Source: a virus
Strand: one strand, 5' to 3'
IMG/VR virus record: IMGVR_UViG_3300050821_003315
Length of the DNA stretch: 64,000 nt
Every line of letters starts with the position of its first letter. Within the stretch, counting starts at the first letter, position 1. The position numbers and the translations under genes are program-made. The notes below the pieces were generated by a model, which saw only the letters and a program-made list of their open reading frames with translations, ran no database searches and was not told where the DNA came from. This document shows, piece after piece, positions 3,944 to 28,092 of the stretch.

Positions 3944-5055
3944 ATGGTTCTGGAAGATTCCTTTCACGTGGAAGAGCGTCGTCCGGCTGAGCGTCATAGC
4001 TGGACGCCTGTAGGGTACTCCAAGCGCTCTGCCACTGATGTGGAACTAGCTGAGATGGTCGCCACCGTAAACCGGTGGCGGCTGTCCGCTGGCCCTAAGG
4101 GCTGGGAATTCCGGGTCGTGCGCACGACTAAGACAGTTACGGAGATTTAATGACTGAGTTCTGGATACGGGAATGGGGTGGCCCATGCAATGACTTGTCT
4201 GCCATCCCACTCGAAAAGCTGAAGGACTACGAAGGTAAGCGCGTACGCGTTGCCCTTGTTTACGCGGGTATCCTTGAACGCGCAGACTACGGTAACGAGT
4301 TCGTCATCCGAGATGGCTGCACTCGTTACCTCAGGCGTTCCCACATCGAATACATACAGGAGCAGTAATGACACCCCCGCACTCAGTAATCATTTCCGGT
4401 GGCGCGTTCAAGCCCGGTGACAGTCGCGAGGAAGACGGTTACATGTGGCTCGCAGGGCCTAACGGTGAATGGACTGTTTATGAGCGTCTTCAGGATAACG
4501 GCGTTCGTCAGGTCCTGGACAGTTACGGCAATGCCAAGCGCTACCGCGTTACGGGTCTCATGCTGGAGGAAGTTCCGCTGTGAACGAGCGATATCGAATG
4601 ATGCGCGAAACAGTCGAGACTGTAGACTATACAGACATCGTAACTACGTCGTTGCTTAACCTGGCACGAGGATTGGACGACGAAGCTACTCGCCTGCTAA
4701 TAGGCAAGCTCATTACGCACTATCTGACTCGTTCTGACGCTATAGACGACTACTACGACAAGTTGTACGCCTTGGAAGACTGTGAGGCGCTATTGTTCAC
4801 CTGGCGCAAGGAAGTGCTGGGGCAGCTGAAAGCGCACCGTAAGGCAGGTGGTGACTAGTGACCTATGCCGCAATGCACGAATACCTAAAGGCGCTTCTGG
4901 AAGTTCCGGAAGGTGTTGTGCACGAAATGCTAGAACTTCTGGAGACCTGGCAACCACTCGACGCTATCGATTTCACAGCTAAGAGCGGTGCTTACACACT
5001 ACGGTGTCCCGGTGGTCAATTCGAGCTTCGCAAGGACGGCGAAAGGGTTATCTGA
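3944..5055 (+). CDS. run of five small coupled hypothetical ORFs (3944-4150, 4150-4368, 4368-4583, 4580-4858, 4858-5055)
   Basis: stop/start overlaps typical of phage operons. Confidence 0.6.
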
Positions 5056-6298: not shown

Positions 6299-6727
6299 AT
6301 GAACCGTAAGATTGTCATCGGCGGCGTTGTGGCGGCGGGCATCGTGGGTATCTCGCTCACTGCATGTGGCCCTGCTCACAACAGCTCCGGTGCTACGCAC
6401 AAGGTCAAGCTAGAAAACGTGGGCGTTGCTGGCGGGGCAGTGCCCGCCGCTGACTGTGCTGTCAGCCTGACCGCCAAGGGCATTACCGCTTACCTGGACT
6501 TCCACGGTACCGTAGACGGCCTTACGGCTAGTTCCCAGTGCCACGAGCTTACCAAGGTCGCCACGCACCAGAAGCACGTCACGGTTACGCAGGTGACCGA
6601 TATCCCGGCGTCCTACAAGTCGGTGTGCTCGGCTACGTCCACCAAGGGCTACACCGTCACGGTGTACTCCAAGAACGCGCTGAGTGACGCTGCTGGCAAG
6701 CAGTTCTGCAAGGCATTCGCTAAGTAG
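6299..6727 (+). CDS. putative lipoprotein
   Basis: signal peptide with lipobox SLTAC. Confidence 0.7.
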   Translation: MNRKIVIGGVVAAGIVGISLTACGPAHNSSGATHKVKLENVGVAGGAVPAADCAVSLTAKGITAYLDFHGTVDGLTASSQCHELTKVATHQKHVTVTQVTDIPASYKSVCSATSTKGYTVTVYSKNALSDAAGKQFCKAFAK

Positions 6728-6892
6728 GAGCCATAAAGTGCCGGAGAAGCAATCTGAACTAGAAATTGAACTGCTAAAGTGCCTAAAGGAAGAAGCCGCT
6801 GACCTCAGGGCAACAGTGCGAATGCTTGCAAAGAAGCTGGCGATAACGGCTAAGAAAGTCGAAGAGCTAGAAGCGCTTCAAGAGGGGGAGTA

Positions 6893-7672
6893 ATGCCGCT
6901 AGAGGGCTTTACAGAAAAGCGGGAACCCGATGGCTGGGACCTGGGGCTAGGTAAGGTCATCGGCTACCGCTCTTGGAATTTCCGGCGGCATAACAACACG
7001 TGCCGGATTATGAACAATGCTATGGACGCATACGATAGGTTCGACGCATACAGTTACAGTTCTGAGGAGCTGCTTAAACGGCTCGGTTACCACTCGTCTT
7101 GGTATTCTGGTGGTGCGTGCCGTTGTTCTCATGGACTGTTCGGTAAGTGGGGGCAGCAATGGCCCACTAAGGTCATGGAAGCTAAGTGCTCACGCGATGA
7201 ATCAGTGGGGTGGCCTTTTATCGGTGGCTGGCCCTCTAGAGTTTCCGCAGTTATTAACTGCCCGCGAGTACTGGACAAGCCGGATGAGTGCGGGTGTGGC
7301 ATCTGGGCCTACTGGGACCTGCCAGCAGACGCTGATTTCGCCATGGATAGAAGCGGTAGTGCTGTTTACTGGCCAGTGGCGGGGCGTATTGAGGGTAGCA
7401 GTCGCGTCGTAATTGGGGAAAAGGGCTTCCGGTGCGAAAAGGCCACACTAACCCACCTGTTCGTAGTGCATAACACCCCCAAGGACGTTACTGACGACTT
7501 GGAGAAGACATTCGGGATTCCGGTCTTCAGGGGTGGCAAGAATACGCCTTTCACCAATCCGGTTCACGATTCAATCAAGCAAAACACCGAAGCTGACCCT
7601 GTTTACGGGCCTACTTGGCATCCCAATGACCCGATGTGGCGAAAGACGATACGAGTTATCACGGGGTTCTAA
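6893..7672 (+). CDS. CGCGxWA family protein, paralog 2
   Basis: GKVIGYRSW, GKWGQQW, CGCGIWAYW, RVVIGEKGFR. Confidence 0.8.
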   Translation: MPLEGFTEKREPDGWDLGLGKVIGYRSWNFRRHNNTCRIMNNAMDAYDRFDAYSYSSEELLKRLGYHSSWYSGGACRCSHGLFGKWGQQWPTKVMEAKCSRDESVGWPFIGGWPSRVSAVINCPRVLDKPDECGCGIWAYWDLPADADFAMDRSGSAVYWPVAGRIEGSSRVVIGEKGFRCEKATLTHLFVVHNTPKDVTDDLEKTFGIPVFRGGKNTPFTNPVHDSIKQNTEADPVYGPTWHPNDPMWRKTIRVITGF

Positions 7673-21087: not shown

Positions 21088-22071
21088 GTGACTGAACGCA
21101 TGTTCCGTGCGCCTGTTATTTCCAGCCTGTGGGACTCGTGCACGAGGCACCTGCAAACTATTAACGTGCGAACAGCAGAAGTCTCCTACGATTACGCGGC
21201 TGACCTGTCCAACAATATCTGGGGCGGCCCAACGGTGTTCATTCATTCCAGTAGCAAGCGTTGGAACCGGGCTGGCGGCCTGGAACATGAGCTGTGGCAG
21301 GTATCGGTCATGGGATTCATCGTAGAAGAGGCTCTGGAAGTAATGCGAGCTGTTGAAGACATGCTAAGTAGTGAGGGTCCTGAAAAGTACGCAAACTATT
21401 ACGGGCATAACTGGCGTTTCCGTGACGGAGAACTAGTACCGGACGAGCTAGCTCGTGTCGGAACGTAAGGCTGACCGCTACCTGCGCCGTAGCGGCACGG
21501 AGAAGCCCTGTCCATGGCCTAGCGCCACGATATACCCCGGTACGCTCAAGGGCGTCACGCAAGCTCTCAAGGACGCACAGATGCTAGCGGTGAACGCCGG
21601 AATAAGCCAGAACGTCTTCGCGTTGTACGGTGACGAGAGGGTCCTGGTCAAGCGCTTTGGGCCTGAGGGGGAAGTAGTGCTAGAAGGGGATTCGCAATGA
21701 CGCTATTCAGTAAGGGCGATGAGGTCATCGTCCGGGAACTGCGCACCAAGATTGACATGCCGGGTTCTACCGGAGCGTGGGTCACCATTCCTGACCCGGA
21801 AGGTTCACCTCGCCAGGCTTTCCTGCCTTATAGCCTAATGGATAAAGTCCGGCCTGAGGTCAAGGTAGGCGATGTGTGGCGCAGCAATCAGGGAACTGAC
21901 TGGTACGTGCGAAAGCTGTGGGCGGCTGCTGACGGTATTGTCATTGAGTCCTTCACGTCTTGTTCAGTTAGCTACAGCTCCATACTACGGGCGGGTTCAG
22001 GACTAGCACGCCCTATAGATAAGTTCTTTGAAGAGCATAAGCCGAAGCTAATGTACCGTACTTCCAGCTAA
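21088..22071 (+). CDS. three hypothetical ORFs (21088-21468, 21455-21700, 21697-22071)
   Basis: coupled ORFs. Confidence 0.55.
21599..21624 (+). promoter_or_regulatory. SigR/SigH-type promoter (intragenic)
   Basis: GGAATA at 21599 and GTT at 21622; upstream of 21697 and the ncRNA candidate. Confidence 0.55.
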
Positions 22072-22086
22072 CAAGCTGGGCTAAGA

Positions 22087-22278
22087 TTCACAGGGACGCG
22101 GGCGGTCTTCCTCCTTTCGCCGCTTACAATAGCCACTTGCTTCGGGTAGGGAATAGGTGAAGGTTTTCCTCGTTAGTTCCGTGCACCTGTTGCGCTACAG
22201 CAGGGTGAACTGACTGAGTTGAGAATCATTGCCGGCATGTGTGAGGCTCTACGGAAAGTGGATACGCGTCCCTGTGAA
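22087..22278 (+). ncRNA. candidate structured ncRNA (~192 nt) with anti-SD loop
   Basis: 14-bp perfect closing stem 22087-22100/22265-22278; internal helices need G-U pairs available on the + strand; fills the gap between convergent genes. Confidence 0.65.
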
Positions 22279-22807
22279 CTATTCTTCTGGTTCATCAGGC
22301 TGCTCCAAAGAAAACAGAATCTCGTTAGCTGCAAGCAGCGCCTGGCCAATGTCGTGAGGCATCAGCTTAGCGCTGTAAAGTCCTTCACCTACCTTGACAA
22401 TCATCAGGAAGCACTGAGCATCAGGCCGTTTCTCCAAGTGCAGGAGTACTTGCTTACCGTCCTTGAGGTTGGCCAGAATCTGGTCCCGCTCAGACACCCC
22501 AATGAACGGAAACTTCTCCAAGACTTTTTCTACGTACGGCAGGGTGAACTTAGTTGCACCCCCAGGGTTATCGTCAAGAGTACCGCTCATGTCACTCCTA
22601 GCTGACCACGAACATAAGGCGGATGTCACCCTTGTCGGTAGTCACGATGTCAGGAAGGGCTTCAATGAAAGCATCTAGTGCCTCGGCTTCAGTAAGTCCT
22701 TCGGAGGCTGCGAGCCTAAGTCCGATATTCTGCGACACCTCAACGGGGTACTCTTCCATAGTGATAGGGTCCGTCGCAGGATTTTGAACCAAGTGCGTTT
22801 CATCCAT
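22279..22807 (-). CDS. two hypothetical ORFs (22598-22807 and 22279-~22590)
   Basis: ORF track; TAGTCT -10 element 6 nt before ATG 22807. Confidence 0.6.
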
Positions 22808-22862: not shown

Positions 22863-23174
22863 ATGACTCGTAAGCTAACGGCAGATGACGCCGAGATGAT
22901 TAAGGTGCTAGGCTCTATCGCAAAAGTTAGTGCGCTGGCTAAAGAGTACGATGTTAACCCGGCTACCATCTACAACGTGCTGAACGGCGTCAGCCACAGC
23001 AAGCCCATTAAGGCCCGCAGTGACCGCACTCTTGGTGACGACACCGTACGAGAAATCAAGCGGCTTAATGCACAGGGACTTAGTGACTGGAAGATTTCAA
23101 AGCAGCCTGGAATGCCGTCTCGCAGTACAGTGCGCCAGATTGTGAATGGCGTTACCTACAGGAATATAGTCTGA
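22863..23174 (+). CDS. tandem HTH DNA-binding protein
   Basis: LAKEYDVNPATIYNVLNG and MPSRSTVRQIVNG repeats. Confidence 0.75.
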   Translation: MTRKLTADDAEMIKVLGSIAKVSALAKEYDVNPATIYNVLNGVSHSKPIKARSDRTLGDDTVREIKRLNAQGLSDWKISKQPGMPSRSTVRQIVNGVTYRNIV

Positions 23175-23515
23175 TGGCTAGGATTACTGCGAAGCAGTTC
23201 AAGGCTGCGGACAAGAACTGTAAGTACCGGAAGTACGTCGGCGCTGACCCTTACACCAAGGACGAGATTGAATTCTACGTGGCGCTACGCGACCACCTAG
23301 AGTACGAAATTGAGAACTCTCGTGCAGGCTGGCTAGACAAGCGCTTCCGGTGGCGCATGAGCGAGGAATGGCTGAAGGATGTGCAGCGTGCTCATCCTGA
23401 GCAGGCCGGGATTATCATCGGCAACCTTCGCGGCTACTGGATTGACCTTAGCGATGAGTACGGAATCCCGGAGCTGGTAGAAATTACCACTCCCGAGCAG
23501 GAGCTTGAAGAGTAG
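23174..23515 (+). CDS. hypothetical protein
   Basis: coupled ORF. Confidence 0.6.
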   Translation: MARITAKQFKAADKNCKYRKYVGADPYTKDEIEFYVALRDHLEYEIENSRAGWLDKRFRWRMSEEWLKDVQRAHPEQAGIIIGNLRGYWIDLSDEYGIPELVEITTPEQELEE

Positions 23516-23843
23516 GCTTCCCGTAATCAGGAATCGGCAGTCCTGTCAGCTCACGTAGCCTGCGTATGGCCCGCTCAATGGTGTAGCCACCCCTAATTTG
23601 ATTACAGTAAATGTTCTTGCCCGCAGCACGAGAGCACTCACGGCAAGGATTACCAGGCGAACCATGAACGGGACGTAGGTTTGTAACGTCGTGCTTACGA
23701 GCTTCATTTTCAGTCTGTGGCTCAACGTGGTCCAGGTGCTTAGCATCATGATGGCTGCAAAGGTGGCAACGGTCGCCCCAGCGCTCGAATACGAACTTGG
23801 TCATGCGCCTATACACGGAACCAGAGGCGTACTTAGAAGTCAT
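23484..23843 (-). CDS. HNH endonuclease
   Basis: CHLC..LDHVEP..NLRPVH..CNQIRG. Confidence 0.8.
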   Translation of the reverse strand: MTSKYASGSVYRRMTKFVFERWGDRCHLCSHHDAKHLDHVEPQTENEARKHDVTNLRPVHGSPGNPCRECSRAAGKNIYCNQIRGGYTIERAIRRLRELTGLPIPDYGKPTLQAPAREW

Positions 23844-27584: not shown

Positions 27585-27746
27585 ATGAAGACTGAGTACG
27601 AGCGGCGGCGGGACACTATTGTCTGGGAGCTGTGCAAGAAGTGGCAGAAAACTCAGCACAAGGGAATACCTATTGCACTGATGGACGTGCTAGGTGACGC
27701 TTACGAAATAGGCTACAAAGACGGCGAAAGCGATAAGCATGCCTAA
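27585..27746 (+). CDS. 53-aa hypothetical protein (leaderless)
   Basis: MKTEYERRRD...; overlaps start of the RF-like gene. Confidence 0.6.
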   Translation: MKTEYERRRDTIVWELCKKWQKTQHKGIPIALMDVLGDAYEIGYKDGESDKHA

Positions 27747-28092
27747 GAAAGAACATGTGTTCTCTGTGACCCTTAAAGACTGTGAGGTCCAAGACTTCTC
27801 TGCCGGAGGTCCCGGTGGGCAACATCAGAACACTAGTAACACAGGCATCAGAATCATCCATCACCCGTCCGGAGCACGTGGCGAGTCGCGAGAAGAGCGC
27901 TCCCAGCTAATGAACAAGCGACGTGCATTCCGACGCATGACAGAGCATGCTTTGTTCAAGCTGTGGGTCAACAGGCAACTGTGGTATCGCGGTCAGTCTC
28001 CCGAGCAGCGCGTAGATAAAGACATGCAGGACAAGAACCTTCGCGTGGAGATAAAGGACGGCAAGCAGTGGAAGGTGGTGGACGATGCCTAA
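27739..28092 (+). CDS. stand-alone class I release-factor GGQ domain (peptidyl-tRNA hydrolase, ArfB/PrfH-like)
   Basis: AGGPGGQHQNTSNTGIRIIHHPSG..ERSQLMNK. Confidence 0.9.
   Translation: MPKKEHVFSVTLKDCEVQDFSAGGPGGQHQNTSNTGIRIIHHPSGARGESREERSQLMNKRRAFRRMTEHALFKLWVNRQLWYRGQSPEQRVDKDMQDKNLRVEIKDGKQWKVVDDA

Follow-up and report, generated by a model that had tools for sequence, protein, structure and literature searches.

Unpaired C-rich motifs target the Shine-Dalgarno (SD) regions of many mRNAs in RsaE/RoxS of the Firmicutes and in Cuckoo/CcsR of the Alphaproteobacteria, which are host-encoded and end in terminators of their own, with the C-rich motif repeated several times in each. In Actinobacteria, which to our knowledge have neither Hfq nor ProQ, the 6C sRNA is a short chromosomal RNA of about 60-90 nt. 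It has two C-rich loops, L2 and L3, which pair with G-rich ribosome-binding regions and repress translation without a chaperone, needing neither Hfq nor ProQ (PMC6486639). The 3'UTR of icaR in S. aureus pairs with the SD sequence of its own mRNA, blocks initiation and recruits RNase III (PMC3868564).

Phage non-coding RNAs with a known role are very few, and hardly any come from actinobacterial phages. The RNA described here lies at 22087-22278, on the plus strand of a window of 64,000 nucleotides, which is part of the complete 163.5-kb genome of an uncultured virus (an IMG/VR virus record). The carrier is probably a soil phage of actinomycetes: its DNA polymerase is about 28% identical to the polymerases of cultured actinobacteriophages, which make up most of the matches. 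The original prediction, made from the letters of this DNA, was of a structured RNA that displays a copy of the anti-SD tail of 16S rRNA and thereby represses SD-led mRNAs. Judged by sequence comparison, the RNA represents a new family among the non-coding RNAs of phages.

With the 103-aa neighbour of the RNA as a guide, homologues were found in two other lineages. One of these is L002, a 181-kb IMG/VR phage, in which the element is about 92% identical; the same sequence is present on two JGI soil contigs (L012 and L013). The other is L011, a Logan contig of about 12.4 kb, in which the element has diverged far more and the long arm is about half the length. A covariance model (R1), built from the two close sequences and a hand-derived structure, recovers L011 with 107.6 bits and an E value of 1.6e-30. 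Between the window and L002 the RNA is 87-95% identical, whereas the adjoining end of the upstream ORF is just 62-78% identical.

Viral, metagenome and genome collections were scanned with exact and gapped patterns, which gave no further homologues. Searches guided by the two neighbouring proteins, of 124 and 103 aa, led back to the same lineages and no others, and BLAST of the RNA region against 50,697 phage records gave no match. There was also no RNA match in G002, a 33%-complete fragment with a DNA polymerase 58% identical to that of the phage. A match in a low-complexity phage region (L010) and six matches in bacterial genomes are due to chance, and R1 gives none of them a score. Each complete genome has a single copy of the RNA, and a search for another within the same genome found none. 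The family is rare, consisting of the three lineages compared here and a fourth, P0003 (an ENA contig of 723 bp), which was left out of the comparison.

The plus strand of the element has a predicted folding energy of -85.6 kcal/mol, with a z score of -5.33, which none of 200 shuffled sequences reaches. The reverse complement folds worse (-60.2 kcal/mol, z -2.09). The long arm of the original prediction is present, with G-U pairs that work on the plus strand only. In alignment A5, which holds three distinct sequences, two of them close, 99% of paired cells contain standard pairs, and there are compensatory double changes at 14 pairs. This number is matched by 0 of 500 shuffles, and none of the changes are found when the structure is slid by 1 to 3 columns. 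RNAalifold applied to A5 gives the same structure, with 15 compensatory pairs. A5 was fitted to the model, but the compensations in P1, P2 and P3 are already visible in the raw sequences. There are at least seven G-U pairs, and one position in P1 is occupied by the series A-U, G-U and G-C, which establishes the plus strand as the RNA strand. It is concluded that this is a real, strand-specific and conserved structured RNA.

The core of the RNA (P1 to P9, 22087-22278, 192 nt) is delimited by the fold z score, the model R1 and the covariation. It consists of a 14-bp closing stem, a three-way junction, a side hairpin (P2) and a rod formed by P3-P9. The closing stem P1 pairs 22087-22100 with 22265-22278, is perfect as originally described, and has three compensatory pairs. 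In the rod, P3 (22133-22138 with 22256-22261) has three compensatory pairs, while P3b (22142-22143 with 22254-22255) and P4 (22146-22151 with 22247-22252) are invariant and thus uninformative on pairing. The long arm, P5-P9, occupies 22156-22233, about 78 nt compared with about 45 nt in L011. P5-P8 contain five compensatory pairs, and the distal part of the arm is missing from L011. Between P4 and the long arm there is an asymmetric internal loop, in which the 3' strand (22234-22246, 11-13 nt in A5, with a conserved GCAUG) faces 22152-22155. The further small hairpins of the original prediction (22136-22150 and approximately 22247-22261) did not hold up: they occur only in the minimum free energy fold of the single sequence and are not conserved, and the covariation-based structure has P3 and P4 instead. 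No small conserved ORF was found within the RNA; an ATG at 22238 is directly followed by a stop codon in L002.

Just upstream of the core is a further small hairpin, P0 (22063-22080, plus strand), with a stem of 6-7 bp and a 4-nt loop. Its sequence differs in L011, where the structure is retained with two compensatory pairs.

The P2 hairpin (22101-22124) has a stem formed by 22102-22105 and 22120-22123, to which the G-U pair 22101/22124 may also belong. In L011 a G-C pair of this stem is replaced by C-G and the stem is 2 bp longer. The stem closes a 14-nt loop, UCUUCCUCCUUUCG (22106-22119). Within the loop, the stretch UUCCUCCUUUCG is identical in the three lineages, so that 12 nt (22108-22119) are invariant while the P2 stem changes. 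Conservation of the loop had been set beforehand as a point on which the prediction would stand or fall, and the loop is indeed kept while its stem covaries. In each homologue the CCUCC of the loop is predicted to be unpaired with a probability above 0.9.

The predicted sequence CCTCCTTTC is present at 22110-22118. It had been placed mostly in the loop, and in the register of P2 supported by covariation all of it is within the loop. It corresponds to nine consecutive bases, CCUCCUUUC, that are identical in the loop and in the 3' tail of actinomycete 16S rRNA, which confirms the copy of the 16S tail. The 16S ends read GGAUCACCUCCUUUCU in two actinomycete genomes. With one occurrence in the 163.5-kb genome against about 1.2 expected, the 9-mer is not significant by itself. 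The notable point is that it is placed in the invariant open loop of a covarying RNA.

Duplexes between the loop and SD sequences of 5 to 11 nt are predicted to have energies of -8 to -18 kcal/mol. As modelled, P2 therefore shares with 6C an unpaired C-rich loop that is capable of binding to G-rich ribosome-binding sites. Alignment A5 shows no conserved stretch within the RNA that is complementary to the loop, and no complement of 12 nt or more was found elsewhere in the phage genome, where the best predicted partners of the loop are ordinary purine runs. Pairing between the loop and a target is beyond the reach of covariation, because the loop never varies. The idea that the minus strand of the loop is a real SD sequence was rejected, there being no start codon at a usable distance in either lineage.

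Since the loop has the same nine bases as the 16S tail, we consider the most likely mechanism to be that it pairs with SD-like tracts on mRNAs, and we put this forward tentatively. The RNA would then be a plausible anti-SD sRNA. The scaffold would present one hairpin with a single-stranded, invariant 14-nt loop, and the loop would base-pair with SD-like purine tracts (GGAGG, AAGGAG). The targets might be other mRNAs in trans, or the leader of the RNA's own mRNA. Such a duplex would mask the ribosome-binding site, and RNase III could find a substrate in it.

A single loop on an elaborate scaffold of about 200 nt with conserved internal loops suggests more than simple antisense. It is possible, if unlikely, that the RNA instead binds protein or acts as a scaffold, for example on RNA polymerase in the manner of 6S/Ms1, or in some other ribonucleoprotein. 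The rod, the junction and the internal loops would then be the functional surface, and the pyrimidine loop would make a protein or tertiary contact, its likeness to 16S rRNA being incidental. The architecture is elaborate and conserved enough for such a role: P4 does not vary, nor do the internal loops (GCU/UC/GG facing G/GA, and GCAUG). The length of about 190 nt and the rod shape resemble 6S RNA in size, and the genome-wide frequency of the 9-mer, about that of chance, is in keeping with this reading. Against this, no match to 6S or to any other Rfam family was found, even at E<=10. The largest internal loop is asymmetric, with 4-8 nt opposite 11-13 nt, and is smaller than the central bubble of 6S RNA, to which a three-way junction with a side hairpin is also foreign. 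In the neighbourhood of the RNA no RNA-binding protein was recognised, either by Pfam and PHROG searches or by a fold search for the 103-aa neighbour.

The RNA occupies the entire space between two convergent ORFs, starting 15 nt past the stop codon of one and ending 0-8 nt before the other, and the order ORF, RNA, convergent ORF is common to all three genomes. The upstream ORF (ORF124, 21697-22071, plus strand, from the ORF list) encodes 124 aa, and its stop codon lies inside the P0 hairpin. It has no Pfam or PHROG match, and its orthologue in L011 is 61% identical. The convergent ORF (22279-22590, minus strand) encodes 103 aa, with a start ATG at 22590 set by comparison with its homologues, which are 103-105 aa long. 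Its stop codon abuts the 3' arm of P1.

The 103-aa ORF adjoins the RNA in every genome found. Its family is a tiny orphan one, with only three proteins at E<=0.001 in each of two libraries (5.8 billion sequences and 1.84 billion representatives), and just one of the three matches in the 1.84-billion library is a full-length relative. The protein has no Pfam or PHROG match. It was modelled as a candidate RNA-binding partner (pLDDT 71.5), and no fold match was found in the PDB at E<=0.001. It has an acidic C-terminal tail. A profile of the family also has a weak and unexplained match to a 1592-aa protein (P0004), comprising eight matched stretches with an E value of 2e-8.

The region around the RNA seems to be rich in mobile endonuclease genes. 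Small ORFs at 22863-23174 (plus strand) and 23484-23843 (minus strand), at most 1.5 kb from the RNA, have PHROG matches of HTH and HNH-endonuclease type. In L011 an Endonuclease VII-type gene (177 aa) is inserted between the ORF124 orthologue and the RNA (6489-7108, minus strand of the locus). The two sequences flanking this insertion, GGCACCTAGCCG and GGCTAGCTAGCCG, are alike, which would fit a mobile endonuclease cassette that entered at the P0 hairpin region. Further downstream, the window encodes a stand-alone GGQ (RF-1) domain protein of 117 aa (27739-28092, plus strand; Pfam E value 7.5e-15), which has a counterpart of 120 aa in L011 (PF00472, at 598-960).

No sigma-70-type promoter was found near the RNA in a pattern scan, and no intrinsic terminator (a G+C-rich hairpin followed by a U-tract) was found in a pattern scan of 22060-22300. 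There is no room seen for a separate promoter or terminator of the RNA. The motif GGAATA-N17-GTT occurs at 13 exact sites in the window, compared with 0.32 expected (77, 6073, 9362, 15765, 18103, 21599, 26850 on the minus strand, 27550, 35694 on the minus strand, 50401, 54477, 59162 and 62281), and three more sites are present in the relative L011 (7.7 kb). The geometry of the motif is that of actinobacterial promoters of the SigH/SigR (ECF) type, and we take it to be a phage-wide class of putative promoters. An ECF-type motif (GGAAT-N18-GTT) is present upstream of the RNA in all three genomes, at distances of 60-600 nt.

The putative promoter nearest to ORF124 in the window is at 21599-21624 (plus strand), about 70 nt ahead of the ATG, and it is conserved in L002 at 4011-4036 (minus strand). 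This site is likely to be the start of a unit that runs into the RNA. In L011 there is an exact GGAATG-N17-GTT at 7083-7108 (minus strand), in the 3' end of the ORF124 orthologue. Its positional homologue in the window is a near-match with one mismatch, GGACTA-N17-GTT, at 22000-22025 (plus strand), inside the 3' end of ORF124. The near-match is absent from L002 and may be due to chance, since one-mismatch sites number 16 against about 7.4 expected; it is only a candidate for a dedicated promoter of the RNA.

We infer that transcription of the plus strand from the ECF-type promoter probably gives a unit composed of the promoter, one small ORF, P0 and the RNA, so that the RNA appears to be the 3' part of an mRNA unit and not a stand-alone sRNA gene. 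It may be trimmed from the longer transcript, possibly at P0 or P1.

An element that fills the whole gap between convergent genes, in an arrangement identical in three genomes and with no separate terminator, might be passive: a block of structure at the 3' ends that acts as a bidirectional terminator or as a barrier to exonucleases, with a loop sequence that has no role. We consider this quite unlikely. The G-U pairs, of which there are at least seven, make the structure strand-specific, and there is no U-tract. Termination needs neither an invariant 12-nt loop nor invariant internal loops, and conservation is higher in the RNA than at the coding ends next to it.

The sequence of the loop itself could serve in another way, as a decoy of the 16S tail. 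The rigid scaffold would show UUCCUCCUUUC as bait to host factors: anti-phage ribonuclease toxins of the MazF-mt3, MazF-mt6 or RelE1 type, which disable ribosomes by a cut in the anti-SD region or at the related UUCCU in 23S rRNA, or assembly factors that bind the tail. In this way it would protect ribosomes during infection. Several mycobacterial toxins that remove the anti-SD sequence do exist (PMC12274833, PMC12620021), and the loop has single-stranded UUCCU and UCCUU, which are the pentads of MazF-mt6 (UU^CCU) and MazF-mt3 (U^CCUU) (PMC5408214). Any sequence resembling the anti-SD will contain these pentads as a matter of course. CACCU, the site of MazF-mt11 (PMC12274833), is missing from the loop, as is the GAUCA context of the real 16S tail, and RelE1 works on the 16S rRNA of 30S subunits and 70S ribosomes (PMC12620021). 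Stoichiometric bait against an enzyme would also need to be very abundant, and on balance we regard the decoy as improbable. The stand-alone GGQ release-factor domain mentioned above would be in keeping with a phage that defends translation against RNases; that the decoy and this rescue factor both belong to a phage kit for keeping translation alive is equally improbable.

The most far-reaching proposal in the original prediction was a takeover of translation, in which the RNA blocks SD sequences globally, so that SD-led (host) translation is shut down and leaderless phage mRNAs are still translated. The loop is anti-SD-like, conserved and predicted to be accessible, the phage promoter class with its fixed geometry is real, and leaderless mRNAs make up about a quarter of those in mycobacteria (PMC12274833). 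The proposal was weakened by the phage's own genes. SD-like sites, defined as -6 kcal/mol or better, precede about 65% of 208 crudely called phage ORFs, compared with 30% of control positions, and both neighbours of the RNA have such sites. The caveat that had been attached to the proposal was that many phage genes carry SD sequences, and about two thirds are SD-led. Because most phage genes are SD-led, an unselective blocker would also strike the phage. In addition, the phage genome has no extended specific target, the RNA appears to be part of an mRNA unit and not a separate sRNA gene, the one loop of each RNA would have to titrate all the SD sites in the cell, and the analogous idea of a 'leaderless ribosome' in E. 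coli was not upheld (PMC12274833). A global blocker is therefore very improbable.

Finally, the 14-bp pairing of the ends (the covarying P1), the 5' side hairpin and the arm of variable length recall the terminal inverted repeats, side hairpin and msd of a retron-type msr-msd RNA, a reading that can practically be dismissed, since paired terminal repeats (a1/a2) are not specific to retrons, the downstream gene is convergent and of only 103 aa, and a PF00078 reverse transcriptase is absent from the complete 163.5-kb genome, with control genomes giving positive results.

For the preferred mechanism, pairing of the loop with SD-like tracts, two possible partners are close by. The leader of ORF124 has a purine run, GAGGGGGAAG (21658-21675, plus strand), which is only partly kept in L002 and is predicted to form 10 bp with the loop at -15.6 kcal/mol. 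The SD sequence of ORF124 is predicted to pair with the loop at -8.9 kcal/mol; purine runs of this kind are common. Should the loop indeed pair with ribosome-binding sites, the RNA would be a translational regulator that is phage-borne and independent of chaperones. A loop that instead baits toxins that cut the anti-SD sequence would make it an RNA counter-defence of a new kind. In either case the functional handle is simple and testable, being one invariant loop identical to the mRNA-docking sequence of the ribosome, and the comparative support is unusually clean for so rare an element.

The RNA was compared with known families. A search of the whole window against Rfam 15 at gathering thresholds gave no matches, and at E<=10 the region 21900-22500 had a single 13-bit chance match, on the opposite strand. 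ARAGORN found no tRNA or tmRNA in the window. In the literature searched, no phage RNA of this kind is described.

The RNA is of similar length to 6S (RF00013) and Ms1 and shares with them a rod closed by a long terminal stem. It differs in having a side hairpin at a junction and a small asymmetric internal loop, with no promoter-like bubble; the large central bubble resembling an open promoter, which is characteristic of 6S and Ms1, was not found, and nor was a match to RF00013. RsaE/RoxS and Cuckoo/CcsR have several C-rich motifs, whereas the phage RNA has one, and no Rfam match.

With the icaR 3'UTR of S. aureus the phage RNA shares a pyrimidine-rich, anti-SD-like motif in a structured region past a stop codon (PMC3868564). 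The arrangement is also alike, in that the RNA follows an ORF in a putative promoter-defined unit and the leader of this ORF has complementary purine runs. The two come from different host phyla and have no sequence relation, and the phage RNA is far more elaborate. Moreover, in L011 an endonuclease gene parts the ORF from the RNA, and pairing between 5' and 3' ends is only a candidate here.

The likeness to 6C (B11, RF01066) lies in the actinobacterial setting and in the C-rich single-stranded hairpin loop. Two hairpins with C-rich loops on a short RNA, as in 6C, were not found: the phage RNA is about 200 nt long, phage-borne and built on a three-way junction, with one CCUCCUUUC loop and no Rfam match. 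It is concluded that neither Rfam nor the literature searched describes this RNA family, while the kind of mechanism proposed for it is one that is already known.
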